Shown here one piece after another: positions 7,135-61,720 of a stretch of 64,000 bases of DNA; position 1 is the first letter of the stretch; every line of letters starts with the position of its first letter. The translations under genes and the position numbers were made by a program. The notes beneath the pieces were generated by a model. It saw only the letters and a list, made by a program, of their open reading frames with translations. It ran no database searches and had not been told where the DNA came from. This stretch comes from an uncultured Verrucomicrobiota bacterium (GTDB taxonomy: Bacteria > Verrucomicrobiota > Verrucomicrobiia > Limisphaerales > J093): NCBI GenBank assembly GCA_964535555.1, contig CAZHUS010000019.1:18555-82554 (forward strand). The letters run 5' to 3'.

Positions 7135-7308
7135 GCAGTTCAGTGTGTTCCTGTGAACCGCAGGCAGTTACCAGCCAGACGCGCTAATAGCAACACTTTC
7201 CTGTTGAATGAACAGGCTGACGGTGCCTCCCGGCCTGACGGTAGCCGCGTCCCGACCGTGCCGGTTTCCAGCCCGCGGCACCTTCCGCAGGCTGGCAGCG
7301 CTCGGCGC

Positions 7309-7427
7309 GAACCGACCGCAATCGCTCCGTTCCAGGGTCGCAGCGCAAGCAAGCGGTGCCCGAGTTGAATTCTGTGAGCGCCAGGGGGCACAAGCTCGCG
7401 CTGCGGCCGCGGACCGGCCGCGGTCCT
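7309..7427. repeat. Family D hairpin repeat, copy 2
   Basis: Aligns by eye to 1786-1896. Confidence 0.65.
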
Positions 7428-7532
7428 GGATGCAGCCCTGATTCGGCTTGGTATTTGCTACCTCGGATGGCGGAATGCCTTCTCGATCGATGAGGACAAC
7501 CGCTGGCCCAGCTCTTCCCATGAATTTCCCCG

Positions 7533-7604
7533 GGAGCGCGGACTTCAGTCCGCAGGAAGCCACGCCGGTTAGGGGACGTCCCGGCGGGCTAAAGCCCGCG
7601 CTCC
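7533..7604. repeat. Family A double-hairpin repeat (ggagcgcggacttcagtccgcaggaagcc ... gcgggct.aagcccgcgctcc)
   Basis: The first 29 nt are identical to 46724-46752. Contains two short hairpins: gcggac-ttca-gtccgc and gcgggc-taaa-gcccgc. Confidence 0.75.
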
Positions 7605-7656
7605 GTAACGGTTCACGGTCCCCATGCGCGCCGGTCCTCCCGGCGTCACGGCTTCG

Positions 7657-7908
7657 CATGAACCTGCCCCGAAAAGCGGGGATGAATCCCCGCACTCCAG
7701 GCGCTTCGCGGCCCCGGACGTGCCTGGGAGCGGCGCGAAGCGTTTGGAGTGCGTCCGCTTTAGCGGCGCTTTTTGGTTCATGGTCACGGAGCAGGTCCAA
7801 AAGGAACAGGTGGCTTTCCATGAACCACCAGGTAGGGCGGCCACTCCGCTGCCCGCCGAGTTCGGCCCGCAGAGGACTGCGCGCCCTACCTGGGAGGGCA
7901 GGTTCATG
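7657..7908. mobile_element. 252-bp non-autonomous (MITE/REPIN-like) composite element with 12-bp TIR catgaacctgcc / ggcaggttcatg
   Basis: The terminal inverted repeats are exact. The interior is a 126-bp imperfect palindrome (7657-7782) plus a GTAG-REP doublet (7828-7893). A near-identical 255-bp copy in opposite orientation lies at 48222-48476. Confidence 0.75.
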
Positions 7909-7913
7909 GCCGG

Positions 7914-10900
7914 ATGCGCGTTAATCGTTCGGCGTCAATGCTCTCCATGAATCCCGCTCCCGAGTTCGTCCGCCGGAAGCTCGTCTCCCTGGTGCAGCTC
8001 GGCACCGCCTTGTTCCTCCTGCCGGCAACCGGGCGCGCCGAGACCGTGATCAACGAGCTTCACTTCAACCCGGACGTTAAGACGGAAGCCGTGGAGTTCA
8101 TCGAGCTCCACAACACGGCCTCGGAACCGGCGATCCTGACGGGCTGGCGCCTGTCTGACGGCGTGAGCTTCACCTTCCCGGACACGGTGATCCCCCCCGG
8201 AGGGTTCGTCGTGATCGCGGAAAACCCCGCCGCCCTCCAGGCGAAATTCGGCGTCAGCGCGCTGGGACCCTACGACGGGAAGCTTTCAAAGTACGGCGAC
8301 CGCGTCGTTCTCCGCGATCCGGGCGACGCCGTCCGGGATGAGGTCGAGTACGGCCTCGGTTTCCCCTGGCCGACCGTGGGCGATCCACCCGGCTATTCGA
8401 TCGAACTGATCCATCCGGGGCTCGACAACAATCTGGGTGGCAGCTGGCGCGCCTCGGTAACCGGAGGCGGCGTCCAGCCCACCTCGCGAACCCTCCTCGA
8501 GCGCCGCGGCTCGTGGCGGTACGCCAAGGGCGTCGGCGAACCCTCCTCGCCTTCCCCGGCCTGGCGGGATCCTGCCTTCCGCGATGAGGCCTGGGACGCG
8601 GGTGAGCTTCCCATCGGCTACGACCCTGCGCTCGACTTGGGAACGGTCCTGAGCGACATGCGCTACAACTACTCCTCGGTCTTCCTGCGCCGCGCGTTCA
8701 CCGTCGAGGATCCGGGTTCCGTTTCGGCGCTGGACCTCGAGGCCCTTTACGACGACGGCTTCAAGGTCTGGATCAACGGACGCAGCGTGCTGGATGTGAA
8801 CATCAGCGCGGGCGAGGTTGCCTTCGACGGAACGGCCGGTCCGGCGCGCGAGTCCAACGACTACGAGACCTTCGCCATGCCGAACGCGGCGGCGTTCCTC
8901 CAAAGCGGGGCGAATGTCATCGCCATCCAGCTCCACAACAGCTCGCGCGACGCCAGCAGCGATTGCTTCTTCGACTGCCGCCTCGTGGCCCGGTCGGGCC
9001 CGACCGGCCGCGGCCCGACCCCGGGCCGGGTCAATGCCGCGTTCGCCGCCAACGCCCCGCCGCAGGCGAGGCAGATCCAACATGTCCCGCGGGAACCGCG
9101 CAGCGGCGAAGCCGTTCGCATCACCGCGAAAGTCACGGACCCGGACGGCGTCGGGGCCGTGACGCTCCAATATCAACTCGTCGATCCGGGGGCCTACCTT
9201 GAACTGACCGACGCCGAGTACGAAAGCGCATGGACTCCGATGCCCATGCTGGACAATGCGCAGCAAGGAGACGAAGCCGCCGGCGACCAGGTGTTCACCG
9301 CGGTGTTGCCCGGTGATTTGCAGGTTCACCGCCGGTTGATCCGGTACCGGGTCGAGGTCGCCGACACAAGGGGCGCCTCGGTACGACTGCCGTACGCCGA
9401 CGATCCCCAGCCGAACTTCGCGTACTTCGTCTACGACGGCGTCCCCGCCTGGACGGGCGCGGTGCGACCGGGCAGCGCCGGTAACCTGGGTCAGACCTTC
9501 ACCGTGAGCGCGGCCGAGATGAACCGGCTCCCGGTGGTTCACCTGCTCGGGAAGCGGGCCGCGATTGAAGAGTCCACCTGGTTCAGTCGTTACGGGGGCG
9601 ACGCGTATCCCTGGCTCGGCACCCTGGTCTACGACGGACGCGTTTACGATCACATCCGTCACCGGGCCCGGGGCGGCGTCTGGCGCTATTCCATGGTGAA
9701 GAACATGTGGAAGTTCGACCTGAACCGCGGGCACGATTTCGAGGCGCGCGACAACTGGGGACGCAAGTTCGACACGCCCTGGACCAAGCTCAACCTTGGC
9801 GCCTCCATCCAGCAGGGCGACTACAACCATCGCGGCGAACAGGGCATGTTCGAGTCCGTCGGATTCCGGCTCTTTCAGCTGGCGGGCGTGCCGGCGCCGC
9901 ACACGGCCTTCTGTCAGTTGCGCATCATCGACACCCCGGAGGAAGTGGACGCCAGTACGCAATACGAAGGCGACTTCTGGGGCGTGTACCTGATGATCGA
10001 GCAGGAGGACGGACGCTTCCTCGAGGAACACGGACTCGCCGATGCCAATTTCTACAAGATGGAAGGCGGCACCGGTGAGCTCAACAACCTGGGCGCGGCG
10101 GGTCCGGTCAACAAGAGCGACTTGAACGCGTTCCTGAACGTGGTCAACGGCGGCGCCGCGGCCTCGGAAGCGTGGTTCCGCGCGAGCGTGAATCTCCCCG
10201 CGTACTACAGCTACCAGGCCATCGTGCAGGCGATCCACCACTACGACATCTGCTACGACAAGAACTTCTTTTACTACTTCAACCCCACGAACCAGGTCGT
10301 CACCGTCACGCCTTGGGACCTCGACCTGACCTGGGCCGAGAACATGTACGACCCCGGTTGCGGCGGCGTGGATCGCCTCAAATCGCGGATGCTCCCGAAC
10401 GCCTCGCGCTATCCCGCGCTCTGGCGTGAATGGCAGAACCGGATCCGCGAGGTGCGCGACCTGCTCTGGAACGAGGAGGAAGCCTGGCGCCTGATCGACG
10501 AGTACGCCGGCCGGCTTCGGGGCTCCACCAACGCGCCCGGCTTGCTCGATGCGGACCGGGCCCAGTGGGACTACAACCCCAAGATGAACAACAGCGCCTA
10601 CACCCAGAGCCCCGGAAAGGCGGGCCAGGGGCGCTTCTACGCCTGGCCGAACGAGCCTTCCGTCCCCCGCGACTTCCGCGGTGCCGTGCAGTTGATGAAG
10701 AACTACGTGAGCTTCCGCAGCACGAGCCCCGCCGCCCAGGCCCGCGCGCTCGACCTCCTGGCCGCAGACCCGGCCATCCCGGGGACGCCCGAGGTCACCT
10801 ATGCCGGACCCGCCGACTACCCCGTCAACGCCCTGCGCTTTCGCTGCTCGGCTTACAGCGGCAGCGCCTCGTTCGCCTCCATGCAGTGGCGGATCGGTGC

Positions 10901-40129: not shown

Positions 40130-40147
40130 GGGGTCAGTCCCTGAAAT
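40130..40147. repeat. Left inverted repeat of the RAYT unit
   Basis: Exact match read directly. Overlaps the RAYT stop codon and lies 12 nt upstream of the GNAT start. Confidence 0.9.
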
Positions 40148-41183
40148 CTGCACCAGGACGGGGTCTACGACCAGCCTTCCCAAGCAACTCCCTCCATTCT
40201 CGCACGCGCTTGTCCCGGCTTTGCCTGACCACCTTCACGGCGCGACTCACGCTCGATGCGTGTCCCATCGCCAGCCGTTCGCTGATCCATCGACACGACA
40301 CTGCCGTCCACTGCCGCAGTCCCCAGGCGAGCACTTGCTTGGACGGAGTCACGCCGGGTTCATTCGCCCAGTCCCTCCCGGTCCAGCGCAACGTCTTCTC
40401 CGCTGAGTCCAGCCATCGCTCCGCCGCCAATTCTCCATGGGCGTCGATGGCCTCTCCAGCGACCGAATCCGCCATTCTCCCTTCCATTCCGCGTTCCATC
40501 GCCTCCAACAACTGCACGCGGAATCCGCGGCTGCCGACGTACCATCCCTTCCGCAGTTCTCGCCATTCGTTCTGCAGCTCTCTCCCCTTGCGGGGGTCGG
40601 CACATTCCAGGGCCCGGCTTTCCAGATACGCTTCATAACCGCGGAGCGCGGATGCGGACCCCGCCTGAAACCCGAGCGCGCCCCATACTCGGTCCCTCCG
40701 AAGCCACCCGGCGAACCGCTGCCGATCATCGACGTACGAGGGATAACTGCTCCAAGCGTACTCACGCAACTTCTGCTCCCCCGGGCGGATCAGTCCCGCC
40801 CTTACCGGGTTGAGATGGATGTACGTGCTCACGATGCCAAAATACGCCTCCTCGCCCGTGTCGACGACGATGGCCTTGTAGCGTCCGGCGAGGACGTGTC
40901 CTGTGAGGCGGTGCCGGGCGTTGAAGCGACGGGTGTACGTGCCCTGAAGCCAGTGCATCCCCACCACGAGATTCGCTTCGGGTGTTTCGACGAGCAGGTG
41001 ATAATGGTTGCCCTTCAGCACGTACGCGTGCACCTGCCAGCCCGTCTTCTCGCAGGCTTCGCCCAGGGTGGTCAGGAACTGACCCCGGTCGGCGTCGTCG
41101 CGGAAGATGACGTTGCCCTGGTTGCCGCGGCTCATGACGTGGTAGACGGCTCCCGGGAACTGGATTCGGAGGGGGCGGGCCAT
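40134..41183 (-). CDS. REP-associated tyrosine transposase-like protein (IS200-like Y1 HUH domain plus C-terminal DnaA-domain-IV-like HTH)
   Basis: YHVMSRGN, GNHYHLLVETP (HUH) and YIHLNPVRAGLI (catalytic Tyr helix). The C-terminal ISERLAMGHASSVSRAVKVV resembles the DnaA-C HTH. Confidence 0.8.
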   Translation of the reverse strand: MARPLRIQFPGAVYHVMSRGNQGNVIFRDDADRGQFLTTLGEACEKTGWQVHAYVLKGNHYHLLVETPEANLVVGMHWLQGTYTRRFNARHRLTGHVLAGRYKAIVVDTGEEAYFGIVSTYIHLNPVRAGLIRPGEQKLREYAWSSYPSYVDDRQRFAGWLRRDRVWGALGFQAGSASALRGYEAYLESRALECADPRKGRELQNEWRELRKGWYVGSRGFRVQLLEAMERGMEGRMADSVAGEAIDAHGELAAERWLDSAEKTLRWTGRDWANEPGVTPSKQVLAWGLRQWTAVSCRWISERLAMGHASSVSRAVKVVRQSRDKRVREWRELLGKAGRRPRPGADFRD

Positions 41184-41220: not shown

Positions 41221-41255
41221 CAATTTCAAATCTCAAATCTCGAATTTCACATTTC
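41221..41255. repeat. Five tandem AT-rich heptamers (caatttc aaatctc aaatctc gaatttc acatttc)
   Basis: Read directly. Lies 38-72 nt upstream of the RAYT start and is the most AT-rich patch of the window. Confidence 0.85.
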
Positions 41256-45817: not shown

Positions 45818-45923
45818 CTTGGCGGTACGCCCCGTCGGATGTGGTCAGCGTGAGGTCGAGCCTTCCGGCCAGACCCTCGCCGAAGGTCGGATCGACCGCC
45901 CCGCTTCCCGCCGGGCCGTTTCC

Positions 45924-48900
45924 ATGAACACCCTCTCCGATCTGGTCCGCGCCGGGTGGCTGGGCCTGGTGCTTGCCTCGGTCCAGGCTGCCGACCCGAC
46001 CCTGCTCACTTCGTGGAACTTTGAGCGCGCCGGTGACCTGGAAGGCTGGAAACCCAACGCGCATCTGGACGGCGTGACCGTGACGGACGGCGCCCTGCAT
46101 TGCCGCGCCACCGGCAGTGATCCCATTCTCGAACTCGGCGCGCCCCTGGCGGTTCACGCCAGTCCCTGGCAGTTCCTCGAGGTGCGCCTGCGCGCCAGTC
46201 ATGACGGAACGGGCGAGTGGTTTTGGAGTGCCACAACCGAGGGCCGTTTTGGCGGGTTTTCGCAGGACAAGTCGACGCGGTTCCAGATCCGGGGCGGTGA
46301 CTCCTGGCAGGTGGAGCGCGTCTTTCCGTTCTGGCAGGCCGAGGGCAAGATCGTGCGGCTCCGGTTCGACCTGTTTGACGCGGCGACCTTTGCCGTGGAC
46401 GCGATCCGGATCGGCGAACTCGCGGTGCCGCCGACGGCACGGGTGCCCGAGTTCGACTTCATTCATTCGGCGCAGGGTTGGCAGGCGACCGACGGTTGCG
46501 AGACCGGGCAGGGTGAAGCGGGCCTGCGGCTGCGGACCGTGCGAGCAGGCGGTTTCCTGCTGGGCCCGCCGGTGCGTTTCGCCGCCCACGAGCGCACCGT
46601 GCTCTCACTACGCCTGGTCGCGCCGCGGGGAGGCCACGCGGCCCTGCTTTTCGCTACCGCGGAATCGCCCGGGATGCACCGGCATGCCTTCTCCTTGGAA
46701 CCGACTCTCCGTGAAACGCCTGCGGAGCGCGGACTTCAGTCCGCAGGAAGCCTCACCGGCGCAGGGCCGTCCCTGCGGGCTGAAGCCCGCGCTCCTCACC
46801 GGCCTGTGGCCTCGGAGCATGGCCTCGGGGCCAAGGGGACTTCCCAGGAAGCAACCTACAACCTCGACCTGCTGGCGGCGCCTGACTGGAACGGGACTCT
46901 CGTCGCGCTCGGCTTCGAAACCGGTGAACCGGAGGCGGGCAGCATCGAGCTTCGTTCCCTGAAAATCCTCGCGGCTCCGGAGGGGCCACCGCAGGTGCGC
47001 ATCAAATCCTTTGGAGTCGAAGAAGCGATTCCGCGGGTGGGGCGTGCGACTTCGCTGGAGGCGATCGTGGTCAACACAGGCGCAACGGCCGTCTCGAACC
47101 TGACCGCCACGGTCCGGCTCGAACGTGGCGGCTCGGTGATCTCGAACCTGCCGGTGTCGCGGGTCGTCTCGAGGCTCGGGTTTGAAGAGGAGGTGTCGTT
47201 TCGTTGGGAGTTCAGATCGGACGCGGCGGGGGTTCACCGCGCAACCTTGGAGGTCGCCGCGGCGGGGCTTTCAGCCATCACCGCCGCGTCGGACGTCTCG
47301 TTTGCCCCGTCGCTGGGGCTTCCCCAAGCGCAGGGGGTGCCTGATCCGGTCCCGGTGCGCGGGCCGTACGAAGTGGGGGCGTACTACTTTCCGGGCTGGA
47401 AGACCGCAGGGGCGTGGCAGCCGATCCGTGGGTTTCCGGAGCGCCGGCCGGTGTTGGGCTGGTACGAGGAGGGAGCCCCCGAGATTGCGGACTGGCACAT
47501 CAAGTGGGCCGTGGAACACGGGCTGACCTTCTTCGTGTACGACTGGTATTGGTCGCAGGGGATGAGACAGCTCGAGCACGGCCTGCACGACGGCTATTTG
47601 AAGTCGCGCTTTCGACACCTGCTGAAGTTCTGCCTGCTTTGGGCGAACCACAACGCCCCGGGAACTCACTCATTCGATGACTGCCGCGAGGTGACCCGCT
47701 ACTGGATCGCGAACTACTTCCGACTTCCGGAGCACCTCACCGTGGACGGCAAGCCCGTCGTCATCATTTTCAGTCCGCAGCGGCTCACGGAGGACCTCGG
47801 GAGTGACGGGGTGCGTCGCGCATTGGACGCGATGCGGGCGATGTGCCGGGAGGCCGGGCTTGCCGGACTGGAATTGATCGCGTGCGTAGGCGAGGTCGGG
47901 CAGGCGCGGATCGCCGCCCGGGAGGGCTACGACGCCGTGACGGCCTACACCTGGCCGGGCTTGGGAATGACCGGGAGCGGGCCGTTTGCTCCTTACGCCG
48001 ACATTCTGGAAGGTTACCGCAAGCAGTGGGCGCAACTGGTGGAGCTTGGCGAACTCCCATTGCTGACGCCGGTGTGTGGTGGTTGGGACAGCCGGCCGTG
48101 GCATGGGGCCAATAACCTGGTGCGCTACGGAAGGACTCCGGCCTTGTTCCGCCAGCATCTGCAGGACGCGAAGGAGTTTATGGAGAGCAATGACGCCAAA
48201 CGGTTGGGAGCACATTTGGGCTATGAACCTGCCGTTCCAGGTAGGGCGCGCAGTCCTCTGCGCGCCGAACTCGGCAGGCAACGGAGTGCCCGCCCTCCCT
48301 GGTCGACGTTGATGGAGAGCCACCTGTTCCTTGCGGACTTGCTCCGTGACCATGAACCAAAAAGCGCCGCCAAAGCGGACGCACTCCAAACGCTTCGCGC
48401 CGCTCCAAGGCACGTCCGGGGCCGCGAAGCGCTTGGAGTGCGGGGATTCATCCCCGCTTTTCGGGGCAGGTTCATGGGAAGCGGGGTGGCGGCTCGTCAG
48501 GAACCTCGCCCTGCCGATGGCCCGGCCGGCTCTCGGAACGGGTCGGGTGTCCTGCCCCTGGTCCTCATCGAGGCGTGGAACGAATGGGGTGAGGGCTCTT
48601 ACATCGAGCCACACCGCGAGTTCGGCTTCGGCTACCTGGACGCCGTACGCGACGTGTTCGCCGCCCCGGGAGATCACCTGGACGTCACGCCCGCGGACGT
48701 CGGGCTCGAGCTCCGACAGGTTCCCGCCGAAACACCGGGGCGGACGTCGTGGGACTTCAGCGAGAGCGACGAGGGTTGGTCCTGCGGGATGAATCTCATC
48801 GAGTGCCACACGGCGGGAGGAGTGACTTCCGCCCGGACGGCCGGTTCGGATCCGGCCTTCTTCAGTCCGCCGCTCCAAGCCGCTGCCGGCGACTGCAGCG

Positions 48901-49166
48901 CCCTCGAGTTGCGGATGCGGCTAGGCACGGAAGCCGGTCGAGCCTTTGAGGACCGTGCCCAGCTTTTCTGGCGCACTCGTCAACTGCCGGAAAGCGAAGC
49001 AACGAGCGTTCGCGTCCCGGTCCACGCCGACGGAGCGTGGCACGACTACCGGATAGTTCTCGCGGGGAACCCACGCTGGCGTGGCGTCGTGACGCGGCTG
49101 CGGCTGGACCCCTGTTCGCGACCTGGGGTGGAGGTGGCCCTGGACAGCGTGCGGTTGGTGCCGTGA
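45924..49166 (+). CDS. Secreted GH99-like/WbsX-domain protein flanked by repeated CBM-like modules. Carries two in-frame repeat-element insertions, so it may be a pseudogene.
   Basis: Signal peptide MNTLSDLVRAGWLGLVLASVQA. WbsX-like core GAYYFPGWK...FFVYDWYW...LLWANHN...GGWDSRPW...IEAWNEWGEGSYIEP. Insertions are described under findings. Confidence 0.75.
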   Translation: MNTLSDLVRAGWLGLVLASVQAADPTLLTSWNFERAGDLEGWKPNAHLDGVTVTDGALHCRATGSDPILELGAPLAVHASPWQFLEVRLRASHDGTGEWFWSATTEGRFGGFSQDKSTRFQIRGGDSWQVERVFPFWQAEGKIVRLRFDLFDAATFAVDAIRIGELAVPPTARVPEFDFIHSAQGWQATDGCETGQGEAGLRLRTVRAGGFLLGPPVRFAAHERTVLSLRLVAPRGGHAALLFATAESPGMHRHAFSLEPTLRETPAERGLQSAGSLTGAGPSLRAEARAPHRPVASEHGLGAKGTSQEATYNLDLLAAPDWNGTLVALGFETGEPEAGSIELRSLKILAAPEGPPQVRIKSFGVEEAIPRVGRATSLEAIVVNTGATAVSNLTATVRLERGGSVISNLPVSRVVSRLGFEEEVSFRWEFRSDAAGVHRATLEVAAAGLSAITAASDVSFAPSLGLPQAQGVPDPVPVRGPYEVGAYYFPGWKTAGAWQPIRGFPERRPVLGWYEEGAPEIADWHIKWAVEHGLTFFVYDWYWSQGMRQLEHGLHDGYLKSRFRHLLKFCLLWANHNAPGTHSFDDCREVTRYWIANYFRLPEHLTVDGKPVVIIFSPQRLTEDLGSDGVRRALDAMRAMCREAGLAGLELIACVGEVGQARIAAREGYDAVTAYTWPGLGMTGSGPFAPYADILEGYRKQWAQLVELGELPLLTPVCGGWDSRPWHGANNLVRYGRTPALFRQHLQDAKEFMESNDAKRLGAHLGYEPAVPGRARSPLRAELGRQRSARPPWSTLMESHLFLADLLRDHEPKSAAKADALQTLRAAPRHVRGREALGVRGFIPAFRGRFMGSGVAARQEPRPADGPAGSRNGSGVLPLVLIEAWNEWGEGSYIEPHREFGFGYLDAVRDVFAAPGDHLDVTPADVGLELRQVPAETPGRTSWDFSESDEGWSCGMNLIECHTAGGVTSARTAGSDPAFFSPPLQAAAGDCSALELRMRLGTEAGRAFEDRAQLFWRTRQLPESEATSVRVPVHADGAWHDYRIVLAGNPRWRGVVTRLRLDPCSRPGVEVALDSVRLVP
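46724..46795. repeat. Family A double-hairpin repeat, copy inside the CDS
   Basis: The first 29 nt are identical to 7533-7561. Translated in-frame as ERGLQSAGSLTGAGPSLRAEARAP. Confidence 0.75.
48222..48476. mobile_element. 255-bp TIR-bounded composite element (inverted relative to 7657-7908) inside the CDS
   Basis: TIR tatgaacctgcc / ggcaggttcatg. Interior modules match the 7.7-kb copy. Confidence 0.8.
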
Positions 49167-49277
49167 GACGACGACGGGCGGCGTCGATCACACCAATACA
49201 CGAGCGCCGTGGAGCAGGCTCCTCCCCGTCGGTTCGGCCCGGTTGCGTGCCGCGGGCGGCCCGTTCAAGCTGCGTCC

Positions 49278-52200
49278 ATGAAAGCGGCCCAACTGGTGGC
49301 CCACGGGGCGCCCGGACGCGTTGAGATTCGCGATGTTCCAGACCCCACGCCTGGCCCCGGCGAGGTGGTGGTTCGCGTTCGACAGTGCGGCGTGAATCGG
49401 CTCGACCTGTGGCTCGAGGAAGGGGCGCTGCCGATCCCGATCGAACTTCCCCGCACGCCGGGCAGCGAAATCGCCGGCGACGTGCATGCCGTGGGTGAGG
49501 GCGTCCAGGATTTCCGCGAAGGCCAACGCGTGGCAGTGCAGTCGAACCTGTTCTGCGGCACGTGCGAGTTCTGTGCGCGGGGCGAGGAGTCGCTGTGCCT
49601 GAATGCGCAACTGCTCGGGGTGCAGGCTGACGGCGGGTTTGCCGAACTGGCACGGGTTCCGGCCACGGCCCTCGTAAGCCTCCCCGCGGAGGTCTCCTAC
49701 GAAACCTCGGCTGCGTTGACGCTGGCCGGCAGCACGGCGATGCACATGTTGATCGACCGGGCGACGGTGCGGCCAGGCGACTGGGTCTTGGTGATGGGCG
49801 GGGCCAGCGGTGTGGGTTCGGCGGCCATTCAGATCGCGCGCGGCCTCGGAGCCCACGTGATCACCACCGCGTCGAACGCGGCGAAGCGTGCCCTGGCCCT
49901 GGAGCTCGGCGCCGAAGGCGTGGTCGATTCGTCGTTGCCAACGTGGCCCGCCGAGGTGCGCAAATTGTCCGGGCGCCGCGGCGTTGACCTTGTGGTCGAA
50001 CACGTGGGGGGAAGGGTTCTCGAACAGGCCTTTCACTGTCTCGCGCGGGGCGGAACGGTCGTGACCTGCGGCGCCACCGCGGGACGGCAACCGACCTTGG
50101 ACCTCTGGCCGTTCTTCGTGAAGCAGCAACGACTGGTTGGCAGCTACGGCCGGACGCGGCGAGACATGCGCGCGACGCTGGACTGGGCGGCGTCGGGTCG
50201 CTTGAAGCCCGTCGTCGATCGCGTCTTCCCGCTGGCCGAAACCGCCGCGGCACTTGGGGCCCTGAGAAGGCGCGAGGTTCTGGGCAAGGTCCTGGTCGCG
50301 TGCGCGAGCGTTTTGTTGATGGCGCTGCCGCGGGTCCACTCGCAGCCCTGCTTCGAGGACCGGCCCGTGGACCATGATGTCCACGAAGCCCGCCCGCTCC
50401 CTCATTCCCGGGCGAACGATGTCCGCCGCCTGGCCCTCGGATCCGACGGCCGGGTGTGGGCAGCGACCGCGGGAGGCGTGTTCGTGACGACAGACCAACC
50501 GGCTCCGTGGGTGGACTTGGAACCCTCGGCTCTGGACGGTCCGGCTTTCGACATCGCGGCCGATGTTGAAGGCGGCATCTGGGTTGGAAGCTGGAACGGC
50601 TTACACCATCTGATCGACGGCAAGGCCACGCGGGTCGCTGGCGTCGAAGGCCCGATCGCCGCCGTGAGCGCGGCGACCAACCTTGTTCTCGCCGCGGGGC
50701 CGGAGGGTAGCTACCTGGCTCGTGACGGACAATGGGAGCGAATTGAAACAGGCGCGTCGCGGTACCTTCATCGCGTGGCGATCGAGCCTGGCGGAGCTTG
50801 CTGGTTCGCCACCGGCATGGGCTTGTATCGCTGGACACCCGGTGGGGGAGCGTACTTCCGCGTGCCCTTCGACCGGGTCAGCGCGGACGTTCGGGATTGG
50901 GCGGCCGAGGATGACGGCGGGGTGGTCGCGGGCACGTTGGGCGGGTTGGAGCGGTTTCGCAAGGGACGATGGCACCGCTCGGATGAGGCGAGCGACGGTC
51001 TTCCTTCCGCCGACGTGCGCTGCGTGGCGCGTGGTGCTGACGGCCGCCTGTGGGTGGGCACGGCACGCGGTCTGGCGCGGCAGGAGGATTCGGGGTGGGC
51101 GGTTCGCATGGGACGGCGTTGGCTGCTGGACGATGACGTTCGGGATGTTCTCGTTGGCACGAACGGCTCGGCGTGGGTGGCAACGGCGGGCGGCGTGAGC
51201 GTGCTCCGGCGCCACCAGATTTCGCTGGCCGAAAAGGCCCGGCGCTTTCATGACGTGCTCGAGGCCCGCCACGTCCGGCCGCCGGGCCTGGTCGAGAAGT
51301 GCCGCCTGAGCAAGCCGGGCGACGTCTCGAGCTGGACGCCCATGGACGACGACAATGACGGTGGCTACACCGCCGTTTACCTGGCCATGGAATCGTACCG
51401 TTACGCCGTCACGGGTGATCCCAAGGCGTTGGCCGGCGCCCGGCGCGCCCTCGCTTCGCTGGAACTCCTGCAACGCGTCACCGGCACTCCGGGATTCGTG
51501 GCGCGCAGCGTGGTGCCTTCGGACTGGACCCAGATGCATGATCCGAACGTCGCGTGGAGTGAGGCTGAATGGGCCGCGGCCCGGATCGGCGATCCGCGCG
51601 CCAAGCGGGTGCCGGAGCGCTGGCGGCGTTCATCCGATGGCCACTGGCTCTGGAAGGGCGACACCAGCAGCGACGAGATCACGGCGCACTTCTTCGGCTA
51701 TTACGTCTTTCATGAACTCGCGGCGGACGCCAGCGACCGCGCGCGTATCCGGGACCAGGTCTGCCGGATCACCGACCACCTTGTCGACCATGGGTTCACG
51801 CTGACCGATCTCGATGGCCAGCCCACGCGCTGGGGCGTGTGGGCGCCGGAGCGACTGAACGAGGATCCCGACTGGGCGATGGAACGGGGCATCAACTCGG
51901 TCGAGATGCTCTCGTTTCTGAAGCTCGCCTCCCACGTCAGCGGCCGCGCCGAGTACGACGCCCGCTACCGTGACCTCATCGAGCGGCACCACTACGACCG
52001 CAACGTGGAGGAGGCGCCGAACCTCAACCCGGCATGGCGGACGCATATCGACGCGGAACTGCTGGCGTTCGCGTATCCTGCGTTGCTGGCGCTGGAGACT
52101 GATCCTCGACTTCGCAAGCTGTACCGCGCGAGCTTCGAGCGCTGGCACGAGGCGGTCCGCGCCGATCGCACCGCCTTTTTCGAACTCCTCTACGCGGCTC

Positions 52201-52505
52201 ATGCCCAACCTCGTCGGGAGGACCTCGGGAACGCCGTGACCACGCTGCGCGACACGCCCCTCGACCTCGTGCGCTGGACGGTCGACAATGCCGCGCGCGA
52301 GGACGTCCGGCTGCGACGGTTCCCGCAGGTCGAGGCGTGGCAGACGGACCGGGTGCTGCCCGCGGCGGAGCTTGGTTACTCGCGAACGGACCAGAATCCC
52401 TGGCTGGCACGCCAGGGGGACGACGGGAACAGCGAGAGCGATGGCGTCTTCTGGCTGCTGCCTTACTGGATGGCGCGCCACGCGGGCATCCTCCGCGGAC
52501 CGTAG
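49278..52505 (+). CDS. In-frame fusion of a zinc-type MDR alcohol dehydrogenase/quinone-reductase-like domain (about 340 aa) with a Reg_prop-like beta-propeller and an alpha-helical (toroid-like) domain
   Basis: The ADH part contains PGSEIAGDV, GGASGVGSAAIQ and GKVLV. Then ACASVLLMALPRVHS, propeller repeats (RVWAATAGGVFV, RLWVGTARGL, SAWVATAGGV) and a long helical C-domain. Confidence 0.7.
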   Translation: MKAAQLVAHGAPGRVEIRDVPDPTPGPGEVVVRVRQCGVNRLDLWLEEGALPIPIELPRTPGSEIAGDVHAVGEGVQDFREGQRVAVQSNLFCGTCEFCARGEESLCLNAQLLGVQADGGFAELARVPATALVSLPAEVSYETSAALTLAGSTAMHMLIDRATVRPGDWVLVMGGASGVGSAAIQIARGLGAHVITTASNAAKRALALELGAEGVVDSSLPTWPAEVRKLSGRRGVDLVVEHVGGRVLEQAFHCLARGGTVVTCGATAGRQPTLDLWPFFVKQQRLVGSYGRTRRDMRATLDWAASGRLKPVVDRVFPLAETAAALGALRRREVLGKVLVACASVLLMALPRVHSQPCFEDRPVDHDVHEARPLPHSRANDVRRLALGSDGRVWAATAGGVFVTTDQPAPWVDLEPSALDGPAFDIAADVEGGIWVGSWNGLHHLIDGKATRVAGVEGPIAAVSAATNLVLAAGPEGSYLARDGQWERIETGASRYLHRVAIEPGGACWFATGMGLYRWTPGGGAYFRVPFDRVSADVRDWAAEDDGGVVAGTLGGLERFRKGRWHRSDEASDGLPSADVRCVARGADGRLWVGTARGLARQEDSGWAVRMGRRWLLDDDVRDVLVGTNGSAWVATAGGVSVLRRHQISLAEKARRFHDVLEARHVRPPGLVEKCRLSKPGDVSSWTPMDDDNDGGYTAVYLAMESYRYAVTGDPKALAGARRALASLELLQRVTGTPGFVARSVVPSDWTQMHDPNVAWSEAEWAAARIGDPRAKRVPERWRRSSDGHWLWKGDTSSDEITAHFFGYYVFHELAADASDRARIRDQVCRITDHLVDHGFTLTDLDGQPTRWGVWAPERLNEDPDWAMERGINSVEMLSFLKLASHVSGRAEYDARYRDLIERHHYDRNVEEAPNLNPAWRTHIDAELLAFAYPALLALETDPRLRKLYRASFERWHEAVRADRTAFFELLYAAHAQPRREDLGNAVTTLRDTPLDLVRWTVDNAAREDVRLRRFPQVEAWQTDRVLPAAELGYSRTDQNPWLARQGDDGNSESDGVFWLLPYWMARHAGILRGP

Positions 52506-52560: not shown

Positions 52561-52788
52561 ATGAACGAGCCCGTTGTGGTCACGGTCGATGCCCGCGGAT
52601 TGGAACCGCCCCAACCGATGGTGCGGATCCTCGAAGCCCTGGGCACGCTGGGTGACAGCGCCACAATGCGGGCGCACACCGATCGTCGCCCCATGCACCT
52701 CTATTCCCTGCTCGAAGAACGCGGTTACACCGCGCAAACCCAGCCCGCTGGCGATGGAAGCTTTGTCACCGACATTCGCCGCGCCTGA
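52561..52788 (+). CDS. DUF2249 (TusA-fold-like) small protein
   Basis: VDARGLEPPQPMVRILEAL...DRRPMHLYSLLEERGY is the DUF2249 pattern. Confidence 0.75.
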   Translation: MNEPVVVTVDARGLEPPQPMVRILEALGTLGDSATMRAHTDRRPMHLYSLLEERGYTAQTQPAGDGSFVTDIRRA

Positions 52789-54313
52789 CGTCATCCGGGC
52801 CGCCTCGGGAAAGCGTTCCACCGCCGCACCGGCCTCGGCCCCGGCCAGTGCGCTGGCGCCTTCTGTGACGCTGCCCTTGCGCTTCGTGCTCACGGGAACC
52901 GCGTGCCTGCTCGCGGGGACGATCCTCCTTGTCGTCAGGCCGGACATCCTCGCCGGCTACCACTACAACCAGTACGTGGTGGCCGCGACGCATCTGTTCG
53001 TGCTGGGTTTCATCGGCTCGATCGTGATGGGAGCGATGTACCAACTCGTGCCGGTCGCGCTCGAGGCGCGCTTGCACAGCGAGCGGCTCGCCCGGTGGCA
53101 GTTCGCGTTCCACGTCGTCGGTTTCGCCGGCATGGTATGGATGTTCTGGAGGTGGGATCTCAAGCAGGTCGGACATTTCGGGTCCGCATTCGGTTTCGGA
53201 GTTGGCCTCTTCGTCTACAACATCGTGCGGACCTTGCGACGTGTTCCCCGGTGGAATGTCGTCGCGACGGGGATCAGCTCGGCCCTGGTCTGGCTTTCGG
53301 TGGGGGTTCTGGCCGGACTCCTCGTCGCCGCGGGCAAGTGCACATACGACTCGACCGAGACGCTCGACCGGTCGAACCCGCTGTGGGCGGCGTTGAAGGG
53401 GTTGCAGGCCGCAGCGGGCTGGGTGAACCGCTTCGATCCGCTCGGCGTGATGCACGCCCACGCGCATGTCGGCGTCGTCGGGTTCTTCGTGATGATGATC
53501 GTGGCGGTGTCCTACAAGCTCGTGCCCATGTTCACGCTGGGCGAACTGCAGAGCGATTGCCGCGCGCGGTGGTCGATCCGGCTGCTGAACGTCGGGTTGG
53601 CGGGGCTGTTTCTCGCGCTGGTGCTGCACAGTGCGTTGAAACTGCTCGCGGCGCTCGTTCTCGTCTCGGGGATCGCCGTCTACTTCGTCGAGATCACGGC
53701 CATTTTTCGGGCGCGCCGGCGCCGGGTGATCGACTGGGGTTTGCGCCATTTCATCACGGCGCTCGGCGTGTTGGGAGTGGTGTCGGGGCTGGGTTTGTTC
53801 CTGAGCTGGCCCGGGCTGCCGGTGACGATGTTCACGGCGCAACTGGAAACCGTGTACGGCTGGCTGGGCATTGTCGGTGTGGTCTCGTTCACCATCCTTG
53901 GATTCCTGTACAAGATCGTCCCGTTCATCGTGTGGTTTCGGCGCTACAGTCCTCTCGTCGGCCGCACCCAGGTTCCCGCGCTGGCCGAGTTGTACTCGGA
54001 ACGTCTCCAGGTCATCGGGTACTGGGGCTTTCTAGCCGGGCTGCTCCTTTCCAGTGTGGGAGCCGCGCTGGGAAACCCCGAGGTCGTCCGCGCCGGAGCG
54101 GCGACATTGCTGGCCGGCCTCGCTGTTTTCGGCGCCAACCTCGCCAGGATGCTGCGTCACCTCTGGCGGCGGCAACCCGTCCCGATCGTCCCGGAAGGCA
54201 CCACCCTGCAACGCTCTCCCCATGAACCGCCAGCAGCGAGGGCGGACACTCCGTTGCCCGCCGGATCAACCGCATCCGGAGCGCCACGGACGGCGCGCCC
54301 TACCTCTCCATGA
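52754..54313 (+). CDS. Polytopic membrane protein (about 12 TM), possibly heme-copper-oxidase-subunit-I/NnrS-like. Function unknown.
   Basis: A motif recurs three times: HLFVLGFIGSIVMGAMYQLVPV, HAHVGVVGFFVMMIVAVSYKLVPMF and LGIVGVVSFTILGFLYKIVPF. ATG 52754 overlaps DUF2249 by 35 nt. The last roughly 25 codons are repeat-derived. Confidence 0.7.
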   Translation: MEALSPTFAAPDVIRAASGKRSTAAPASAPASALAPSVTLPLRFVLTGTACLLAGTILLVVRPDILAGYHYNQYVVAATHLFVLGFIGSIVMGAMYQLVPVALEARLHSERLARWQFAFHVVGFAGMVWMFWRWDLKQVGHFGSAFGFGVGLFVYNIVRTLRRVPRWNVVATGISSALVWLSVGVLAGLLVAAGKCTYDSTETLDRSNPLWAALKGLQAAAGWVNRFDPLGVMHAHAHVGVVGFFVMMIVAVSYKLVPMFTLGELQSDCRARWSIRLLNVGLAGLFLALVLHSALKLLAALVLVSGIAVYFVEITAIFRARRRRVIDWGLRHFITALGVLGVVSGLGLFLSWPGLPVTMFTAQLETVYGWLGIVGVVSFTILGFLYKIVPFIVWFRRYSPLVGRTQVPALAELYSERLQVIGYWGFLAGLLLSSVGAALGNPEVVRAGAATLLAGLAVFGANLARMLRHLWRRQPVPIVPEGTTLQRSPHEPPAARADTPLPAGSTASGAPRTARPTSP

Positions 54314-54477
54314 ACCTGCCCCCAAAAAGCGGGGATGAATCCCCGCACTCCAGGCGCTTTGCGGCCCCGGACGTGCCTTGGAGCGGCGCGAAGCGTTTGG
54401 AGTGCGTCCGCTTTAGCGGCGCTTTTTGGTTCATGGTCACGGAGCCGGTCCGCAAGGAACAGGTGGCTCTCCATGAA
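54238..54477. repeat. Repeat cluster: degenerate REP doublet (54238-54307) plus the 126-bp palindrome module and linker (54309-54477)
   Basis: Matches the modules at 7657-7908. Begins inside the 3' end of the membrane-protein ORF. Confidence 0.75.
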
Positions 54478-54501
54478 TGACACTCTCCTCAACCGACCAG
54501 C

Positions 54502-60622: not shown

Positions 60623-61420
60623 GTGTCGGGAACGACGACACTGCTTGCGCGCGTCCGGTTGAAGAGCTTGTTTCCCATCGTCTTTGAGGATGCAGATTTG
60701 CTCGTGCTGCATAAACCGGCCGGGCTGGTCTGCCATCCCACCAAGGGCGATGCCCTTTCGAGCCTGATCAGCCGCGTCCGGCTCCACCTGGGACCGGAGA
60801 GCACCCCGCAACTGGTGAACCGCCTCGACCGGGAAACCAGCGGTCTCGTGGTTTGCGCTCGCAACCCCGACGCCGCCCGGGCGCTACGGCGGGTCTGGGA
60901 AAGCCGCGCGGTCCGCAAGGTCTACCTGGCGATCGTCCACGGCCGGCCGGAAACCGATGCCGGTGTGATCGAGGCGCCCCTGGGTCGGGACCATGCCAGT
61001 CCGGTAGCCATCAAGGACTGTGTTCGGGCCGACGGGGCGCCTGCCACGACCCAGTGGTCGGTTATCCGAGATTTCCAAAGGAACGAAGGCAGCTTTGCCC
61101 TGCTGCGGGTCGAGCCCCTGACCGGCCGCAAACACCAGATCCGCATTCACCTCGCGCACCTGGGGCACCCGGTAGTCGGGGACAAGATCTACGGTGGCGA
61201 CGAACAGGCCTACCTGGCGTTTGTCGAAGGTCGCCTGACGCCGGAGCAACGACGCCGATTGCTGCTGGTCAACCACGCCCTGCATGCCGCCGAACTGGCG
61301 TTCGAATGGCGGGGACAATGGCGGACCTTCGACTCGCCGCCCGAGGCCGAGTTCGTCGAGTTCCTGGGCCCCCTCGAACCGGGACTGCTCTCACCCCTGC
61401 ACCGAAGCCAGCCCATGTAG
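60623..61420 (+). CDS. RluA-family pseudouridine synthase
   Basis: LLVLHKPAGLVCHP, NRLDRETSGLVV (catalytic Asp) and KHQIRIHLAHLGHPVVGD. GTG start; no S4 domain. Confidence 0.85.
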   Translation: MSGTTTLLARVRLKSLFPIVFEDADLLVLHKPAGLVCHPTKGDALSSLISRVRLHLGPESTPQLVNRLDRETSGLVVCARNPDAARALRRVWESRAVRKVYLAIVHGRPETDAGVIEAPLGRDHASPVAIKDCVRADGAPATTQWSVIRDFQRNEGSFALLRVEPLTGRKHQIRIHLAHLGHPVVGDKIYGGDEQAYLAFVEGRLTPEQRRRLLLVNHALHAAELAFEWRGQWRTFDSPPEAEFVEFLGPLEPGLLSPLHRSQPM

Positions 61421-61712
61421 GCAGGGCGGGCACTCCGTTTGCCGCCGGATCCAGGGGTGGGGTAGGGCGGGCACTCCGCTGCCCGCCGAGCCGGCGCGCC
61501 CTACCTGGAACCATGAACCGCCCGGTGAGGGCACCGGGCCTACAACCTGCAGGCCGAGTCCCCCGCCCCGGCGGGACCCGTTCCTCATATCCGACCAGGT
61601 CAAGGAGATGTGTGAGCTACGCATGAACCGGCTACGAGAAGCGGGGGGGCTGAACCCCCGCACTCCATGCGCTTCGCGACTCCGGACGTGCATGGGAGCG
61701 ACGCGAAGCGTC
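61417..61712. repeat. Repeat cluster: two direct GTAG-REP heads plus a truncated partner (61417-61508), hairpin gcccggtg-aggg-caccgggc (61519-61538), and half of the palindrome module (61622-61712)
   Basis: Matches the REP-b sequence gtagggcgggcactccgctgcccgcc and the left arm of the 126-bp module. Overlaps the rluA stop. Confidence 0.7.
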
Positions 61713-61720
61713 TGGTCTGT

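Follow-up and report, generated by a model that had tools for sequence, protein, structure and literature searches.

In-frame palindromic repeats within genes are of an already known kind; what is new in the case described here is the lineage and the host protein. Delihas (2011, PMC3184786) reviewed the Rickettsia palindromic elements (RPEs) together with further repeats found to be fused in frame with genes; RPEs (Ogata et al. 2000) are palindromic repeats that occur both in intergenic regions and in frame within protein-coding genes. Repetitive extragenic palindromic (REP) sequences inside genes were found in several species by Di Nocera et al. (2013, PMC3733652), who also described the verrucomicrobium O. 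terrae as rich in GTAG repeats, and the fusion to genes of MITEs, i.e., miniature inverted-repeat transposable elements, is mentioned for Coxiella (PMC5896051). In this work we analyzed a stretch of 64,000 nt from an uncultured Verrucomicrobiota bacterium (assembly GCA_964535555.1, contig CAZHUS010000019.1, positions 18,555 to 82,554), hereafter the window, in which a composite palindromic repeat lies in frame inside a gene coding for a GH99-like/WbsX protein. The best reading of this arrangement, and in our opinion a probable one, is that selfish repeats were inserted in the gene and are tolerated by its product.

The locus resembles the RPEs in that palindromes of ~100-150 nt or more occur both between genes and in frame within them, the encoded peptide being missing from the orthologues and the open reading frame (ORF) remaining unbroken. 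It differs from them in several respects: the element is unrelated in sequence, the host phylum is of the Verrucomicrobiota type, the insert is a mosaic of several unit types which, with 98-114 codons, is longer than a single RPE, and genic copies look rare, none being convincing among the 72 sites of the wider hairpin family. The likeness to the GTAG REPs and to REPINs (REP doublets forming hairpins) resides in one module of the insert (module B, see below), made of paired short GC-rich hairpins that are GTAG-tagged and inverted as in the class of Di Nocera et al. Moreover, as in REPs and bacterial interspersed mosaic elements (BIMEs), the units of the window are clustered with linker motifs and mostly extragenic, and a Y1 transposase-like gene is present; in contrast with GTAG REPs, the largest unit (module D, 128 nt) carries no GTAG tag. 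With MITEs, the element shares the terminal inverted repeats of module D (CCATGAACC/GGTTCATGG), several open frames and intragenic copies, whereas no clear target-site duplication is seen either at the window insert or in the pair of filled and empty sites discussed below. Bacterial MITEs such as ERIC and YPAL are also reported to be fused in frame to genes (Delihas 2007).

The features that distinguish the present case are the mosaic insert, the presence of two insertions in one gene and the independent gain of a related element at the same loop in an orthologue. It might represent a clean natural experiment in the tolerance to domain insertion, doubly replicated (two inserts in one gene and a distant orthologue with a gain in the same loop), and it would extend the RPE-type phenomenon, that is the turning of selfish DNA into protein sequence, to genomes of the Verrucomicrobiota type and to a glycosidase-like enzyme with a TIM (triose-phosphate isomerase) barrel.

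The Host Gene and Its Insert

The features of the host gene are the following:

45924..49166, + strand: host gene, coding for a GH99-like/WbsX multidomain secreted protein (ORF, PF14307 match and orthologues)
46704..46844, + strand: smaller in-frame repeat insertion of ~45 codons, TLRETPAERGLQSAGS...GLGAKGTS, in a beta-sandwich loop
48177..48229, + strand: module A, a linker unit with ends TTTATGG and CTATGAACC, translated as FMESNDAKRLGAHLGYEP (matched in the intergenic copy, beyond the start given in the earlier note)
48237..48302, + strand: module B, two GTAG-tagged REP-like hairpins, inverted, a REPIN-like doublet (32-nt arms, 78% complementary)
48309..48358, + strand: module C, linker TTGATGGAGAGCC...CCATGAACC, translated as MESHLFLADLLRDHEP (copies elsewhere in the window)
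48350..48477, + strand: module D, imperfect palindrome of 128 nt, its termini being CCATGAACC and GGTTCATGG (inverted-repeat search)
48478..48557, + strand: 27 extra codons 3' of the element, GSGVAARQEPRPADGPAGSRNGSGVLP (GC content at third and second codon positions, GC3 and GC2, 0.67 and 0.74)
48558..48611, + strand: beta-strand and catalytic motif LVLIEAWNEWGEGSYIEP (E922, E925), invariant in orthologues

An earlier note, made from the letters of the window, had described an ORF of 1115 aa that stays open through the element, and this is what we found: the ORF 45819..49166 (+ strand) codes for 1115 aa from the TTG at 45819 and for 1080 aa from the ATG at 45924, the exact 1080-aa product being present in a public protein collection and showing a signal-like segment at its N-terminus. 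The assignment of the host to the GH99-like/WbsX proteins is borne out as well, since PF14307 (Glyco_tran_WbsX) matches with 93.7 bits, the gathering cutoff being 25.1. The match is split in two stretches, and the best one reaches as far as residue 792, close to where the large insert begins; Pfam and other hidden Markov model matches to insert-bearing genes get split in this way. The search with the host protein returned 75 homologues, of which the named ones belong to metagenome-assembled genomes (MAGs) of Verrucomicrobiota/Limisphaerales, with identity up to 60%.

As regards the solved enzymes of family GH99 (BxGH99, 4ad1; BtGH99, 4acy; OpGH99A, 5ngw), the host model shares with them the (beta/alpha)8 barrel fold (Foldseek, 5ngw with TMt 0.55 and 4acy with TMt 0.52) and the N-E-W-x-E-G motif; it differs from them in that the sequence similarity is weak (the family profile aligns with 5ngw at E = 1e-6) and in that the linker of 5ngw is short at the insertion point. 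The alignment of the host with 4ad1 is likewise weak over the whole sequence (E = 0.23), the motif being exact: the NEWGEG of the host matches the NEWHEG of BxGH99 residue for residue, so that E922 and E925 correspond to E333 and E336, which in BxGH99 are the general base and the catalytic acid, respectively (PMC6055899).

The repeat copy at 48222-48476 starts on a codon boundary, is 255 nt long, is translated as previously reported and lies between ...QDAKEFMESNDAKRLG and the strand carrying LVLIEAWNEWGEGSYIEP; all these statements of the earlier note agree with our data. The length of exactly 85 codons, however, does not hold. Indeed, the homology with the intergenic copy at 7.9 kb covers 48177-48482 (306 nt, 89%), that is 45 nt more to the left of 48222; taken between its junctions, TTTATGG at 48177 and TTCATGG at 48471, the genic unit is 294 nt long, and the surplus with respect to the orthologues amounts to 114 codons, with 27 further non-conserved residues between the element and the strand. 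In the same way, the intergenic copy is 252 nt long, and a multiple of three, with the boundaries adopted in that note (7657-7908, - strand), whereas it measures 289 nt from junction to junction. The idea that a length multiple of three might be a property of the element was therefore rejected, because it depends on the boundaries that are chosen. Nor is the absence of stop codons more than chance would give: three of the six frames of the element are stop-free, and so are 37% of all the 255-nt frames in this window of 66% GC; therefore, the openness is weak evidence. In GC-rich genomes, a stop-free repeat with a length multiple of three should not be taken as evidence of a coding function.

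The large insert is a mosaic of the units A, B, C and D, joined by GGTTCATGG or its complement. The peptide type of module A recurs as FMRSRDAGRTGAHGDREP in the protein entry P0078, encoded by the intergenic array; the possibility that this module represents ancestral gene sequence (FMESNDA resembling the FLETNQA of the orthologue P0002) was considered and rejected, because both its DNA and its peptide type of 18 residues are found again in that array. Both hairpins of module B start with GGTAGGGCG, and the doublets lie at 48237-48268/48271-48302 in the gene and at 7828-7859/7862-7893 in the intergenic copy. Module C shares 95-96% identity with the copies at 7651-7825 and 54320-54477. In module D the core arms (48380-48399 and 48423-48442) are 20 nt long and 95% complementary, and the terminal inverted repeats are CCATGAACC at 48350-58 and GGTTCATGG at 48469-77. 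The predicted RNA fold of the 306-nt composite reaches -148 kcal/mol (z = -4.6); no terminator-like site was found within the element, and the scan of the whole window against Rfam at the gathering threshold gave no match. The 27 codons that follow (48478..48557) probably consist of the ancestral linker and of what is left of an older repeat: the peptide AARQEPRP encoded there comes after a C-D unit also in the TamB-like protein P0088, and a related motif occurs in the opposite orientation in the insert of the orthologue P0001 and in an intergenic region of its locus, L001.

Orthologues and a Parallel Insertion

The alignment with orthologues, a check proposed in the earlier note, revealed that the sequence of the window insert is present in none of them. 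Of the orthologues, 64 possess both GGWDSRPWH and EAWNEWGEG, and in most of them the distance from one motif to the other is 41 aa, in comparison with 155 aa in the window protein; the commonest state at the insertion loop is a 13-residue linker. The statement that homologues have only a short loop is thus correct for the majority of them and for 5ngw, but it does not apply to several orthologues in which the loop is also expanded, i.e., P0001 (159 aa), P0002 (88 aa), P0003 (86 aa) and P0006, P0008, P0012 and P0014 (55-59 aa).

P0001 was compared with P0003, its closest relative in this search, which represents the empty site (L003 2486-2570). Within this loop the two differ by a clean insertion of 219 nt, or 73 codons, present in P0001, and the pair shows no sign of a target-site duplication. 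The insert begins with CCATGAACC, contains unit C in the orientation opposite to that of the window (82% over 50 nt) and is found again, with 76% identity, between genes of its own contig (L001 7031-7240 and 1171-1380); two different metagenomes yielded the identical P0001 protein. P0001 gained a related element in the same loop independently. In addition, the C-D unit occurs in frame in an unrelated protein with a TamB domain, P0088, where it precedes the domain by 500 residues and is read in the same frame as in the host protein. The whole host gene family appears to be prone to in-frame repeat insertions.

The Second Insertion and the Predicted Structure

The host gene harbors a second, smaller insertion at 46704..46844. 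This segment, which is missing from all 20 aligned orthologues, holds the palindrome GCGCGGACTTCAGTCCGCAGG...CCTGCGGGCTGAAGCCCGCGC and matches with 80% identity a palindromic repeat of a different type located in an intergenic region (7518-7611); the corresponding feature is:

7518..7619, + strand: intergenic copy of the palindrome type seen in the 46704..46844 insertion (self-comparison of the window)

At a third site, in the N-terminal domain (alignment columns 254-300), repeat-like peptide insertions (e.g., ...EALIRSQKSEVGGQRDDQSLLTSAP..., ...KSAIRNPQSEI...) were observed in P0012, P0020 and P0023.

The structure of the host protein was predicted with AlphaFold from an alignment of 62 sequences (residue n of the model is residue n + 46 of the ORF). 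The model is confident overall, with a predicted local distance difference test (pLDDT) of 80.6 and a predicted template modelling score (pTM) of 0.82, and the only segments of more than six residues with pLDDT below 50 are 253-295 and 759-862, which coincide with the two inserts (pLDDT 25-36). Both of them are predicted to fall in loops and not in secondary-structure elements, in agreement with the extruded loop that the earlier note had suggested looking for. Around the large insert the order of the elements in the model is helix 728-754, insert, strand 868-871 (LVLI) and EAWNEWGEG. In (beta/alpha)8 barrels the catalytic residues are located at the C-terminal ends of the strands, and the helix-to-strand loop would therefore lie on the side opposite the active-site face.

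Probable Selection on the Host Gene

None of the 96 columns that are invariant in the other 61 sequences of the alignment is changed in the window protein, and among the 204 columns conserved at 95% or more it differs at five, the median for the orthologues being four. In the 114 codons downstream of both inserts, the comparison with L118, a 91%-identical relative known from a 114-aa fragment that is the representative of the cluster of the host protein and whose contig (Ga0451520_0159473, JGI sample 3300042261) stops shortly before the insertion loop, gave a ratio of non-synonymous to synonymous substitution rates (dN/dS, omega) of 0.12, with dN 0.033 and dS 0.27; this value, of the kind that the earlier note had proposed to determine for the flanking domain, is based on eight non-synonymous differences, is averaged over both lineages and concerns the C-terminal domain only. 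In a simulation of neutral drift with 2.5-5% substitution, the ORF was still open in 8.5-0.6% of the runs, before taking indels into account. These results favour a live gene, and from the low omega and the retention of the invariant residues we infer that the host protein is made and active. The inserts have a different composition: their GC3 is 0.65-0.67 (0.65 in the large one and 0.67 in the small one), in comparison with 0.79-0.81 in the flanks, and they are unameliorated non-coding DNA.

The Repeat Family inside and outside the Window

Five repeat clusters are present in the 64 kb, with copies 80-96% identical, and four of them are intergenic or at the end of a gene:

7651..7952, - strand: intergenic copy of the whole composite (A, B, C, D), 89% over 306 nt
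18313..18575, + strand: intergenic B-C-D copy downstream of a ribonucleotide reductase gene, 80% over 266 nt
54216..54477, - strand: incomplete copy with B, C and D, extending into the 3' end of the ORF 52574-54313
61419..61715, - strand: intergenic cluster of GTAG hairpins with a diverged D hairpin (self-comparison of the window)

The copy at 7651..7952 ends in the region of the start codon of the downstream gene. The motif GGTAGGGCG, followed by a stem-loop, occurs seven times in the window (0.36 expected) and GGTTCATGG 11 times (~0.4 expected), nearly all the occurrences being within the repeat clusters. In the COX1-like ORF 52574-54313, the final ~32 codons (...SPHEPPAARADTPLPAGS...) and the stop codon are encoded by the repeat. 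Two entries of the public collections, P0078 (217 aa; 7168-7821, - strand) and P0077 (56 aa; ~54313-54480, + strand), are exact translations of repeat arrays and are spurious gene calls; gene callers yield such ORFs on repeats of this kind, and two of them have thus passed from this window into public collections.

Word-indexed protein searches with the element peptide in two frames returned one protein each, one being P0077, and the peptide was found in 15 proteins among 1.84 billion, mostly spurious repeat ORFs. The scan of metagenomes with a subfamily-specific 22-mer gave three matches of 23-26 nt, at chance level, and neither further copies nor empty-site alleles. A wider family exists, since the 19-mer at the core of unit D is present in more than 110 GTDB contigs, where unit D alone is shared, at 70-76%. 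At 69 of the 72 evaluable sites of this wider hairpin family there is no spanning ORF, and the best genic candidate (L085) resembles the disruption of a 3' end and not an internal in-frame insert. The hairpin family is thus essentially extragenic, and in-frame genic copies are rare survivors.

The 19-mer GCACTCCAAACGCTTCGCG forms inverted pairs in Verrucomicrobiota MAGs of 55-68% GC (loci L005-L114) and was also observed in contigs labelled as Parachlamydiales (27-48% GC) and in MAGs labelled as Acidobacteriota, Heliobacteriaceae and Bifidobacteriaceae; in L074 (3363-3625) the order of its arms is inverted relative to the window.

Possible Mobilisation of the Units

A remaining question concerns the enzyme that might have moved these units. 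One gene of the window is relevant in this respect:

40134..41183, - strand: Y1 (IS200-like, RAYT-like, i.e., similar to the REP-associated tyrosine transposases) transposase gene, 349 aa (PF01797, E = 1e-9)

The gene lies ~5 kb upstream of the host gene, and its product has HUH-like motifs, NHYHLL and YIHLNPVRAGL. A transposase of the Y1/RAYT type would be a candidate for the mobilisation of the units. The genic 294-nt unit is bracketed by TTTATGGAGAGC and TTCATGGGAAGC, a direct repeat matching at 9 of 12 positions, and the same motif serves as internal junction motif. No parent insertion sequence with the ends of the element turned up within the 64-kb window, although no dedicated test was made. 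The spacer upstream of the Y1 gene (41222-41255) contains an AT-rich TCAAATCTCAAATCTCGAATTTCA motif.

A Probable Tolerated Insertion and Its Alternatives

On the whole, the tolerated insertion of selfish repeats is the interpretation that we favor. According to it, a selfish palindromic mosaic (a doublet of GTAG-tagged REPs and a long hairpin, with linkers, connected through GGTTCATGG) would have entered a permissive helix-to-strand loop of the GH99-like barrel, on the face opposite the active site; the gene would have remained intact because the insertion added a whole number of codons and is read in a frame devoid of stops. The product would bear a disordered surface loop of ~114 residues, half of which are Arg, Ala, Gly or Pro, and the enzyme would tolerate it, as well as a second, smaller insertion of like kind in the beta-sandwich loop of the same protein. 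Only in-frame copies located in loops would persist, because selection removes disruptive insertions. The tolerance to the insert, one of the two outcomes that the earlier note had joined in its first hypothesis, is consistent with the location of both inserts in loops, the conservation of the ExxE pair and of the 96 invariant residues, the omega of 0.12, the second insert and the parallel case of P0001.

Several observations weigh against this interpretation, or at least against parts of it. The 349-aa Y1 protein falls below the equivalog cutoff (NCBIfam REP_Tyr_transpos, 41 bits against 80) and its gene is not repeat-flanked (no REPtron), neither GGTAGGGCG nor GGTTCATGG occurring within ~6 kb of it; moreover, no Y1/RAYT-like homologue was found near the hairpins in 114 other loci. 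Since the alignment does not contain the insert, part of the disorder that AlphaFold assigns to it follows from the way the model is built, and an Arg-rich loop of 114 residues placed five residues before the catalytic strand could impair folding. No close relative with an empty site was found for the window gene itself. Lastly, the element might postdate the separation from L118, and a recent loss of function is compatible with the limits of the omega value given above.

A somewhat different view of the loop is that it owes its insertions not just to permissiveness. We can speculate, although we deem it rather improbable, that the helix-to-strand loop is a recurrent landing site of REP mosaics across Verrucomicrobial lineages, where the codons of the conserved helix end (R/E-F-I/M-E, that is GGTTCATCC/GAGTTTATGG) mimic the junction/target motif GGTTCATGG; a Y1/RAYT-like enzyme would insert the units with no duplication of the target, and frame neutrality would have evolved in them as a means of persisting in genes.

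The second possibility raised in the earlier note was that of a very young pseudogene, in which the insertion(s) inactivated the enzyme too recently for a stop codon or a frameshift to have appeared. The little weight carried by the openness of the frame leaves room for it, as do the position of the insert, a few residues before the catalytic strand, the 89-96% similarity among the copies of the element, from which an insertion younger than the split from L118 might be deduced, and the nearly always extragenic location of the wider hairpin family. If the insertion were very recent, the data would be compatible with this scenario. However, two separate insertions, both of them in frame and in loops of the model, no loss of invariant residues, the low omega downstream and the small fraction of simulated neutral runs with an open ORF are hardly what inactivation would produce, and the orthologue P0001, identical in two samples, carries a similar and independent insertion in the same loop. 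We therefore consider the pseudogene unlikely.

Slightly less credit can be given to exaptation, the other half of the first hypothesis of that note, in which the loop would have gained a function (as a flexible Arg-rich tether, as a binding or regulatory segment, or as an mRNA hairpin tuning translation or folding) and would be kept by selection. It is true that several orthologue lineages show independent expansions of this loop (P0001, P0002, P0003 and P0006/P0008/P0012/P0014), that the unrelated TamB-like protein uses the same reading frame of the C-D unit and that the predicted RNA fold is very stable. Nevertheless, the insert has the composition of non-coding DNA (GC3 0.65) and is predicted to be disordered, it is conserved in no orthologue, and the sequences of the expansions are unrelated or oppositely oriented between lineages; furthermore, the commonest state among the orthologues is the 13-residue linker, and the rarity of the peptide in the protein collection, mostly within spurious ORFs, does not point to a selected segment. 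Exaptation finds no support in these data.

An artefact, with a repeat misassembled into the gene on a repeat-rich MAG contig of a poorly sampled lineage, might be imagined since repeats are known to cause misjoins, but it is very improbable in that both flanks belong to the same gene, in the same frame and colinear with the orthologues, the genic copy differs by 4-20% from every other copy of the window and is thus not a collapsed duplicate, and an orthologue assembled independently from two samples shows the same phenomenon.

Other Observations in the Window

Two further ORFs of the window were noted. In the ORF 49209-52505 (1098 aa), a Zn-dependent alcohol dehydrogenase, complete and spanning aa 49-363, is joined in frame to a Reg_prop-containing protein, which has a signal-like segment of its own, and no stop codon separates the two parts; this could be due to a lost stop codon or to a same-frame gene fusion. 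Finally, at 25477-25764, within a giant ORF of ~2090 aa (23356-29628), there are 13 overlapping tandem copies with a spacing of 12/18 nt.

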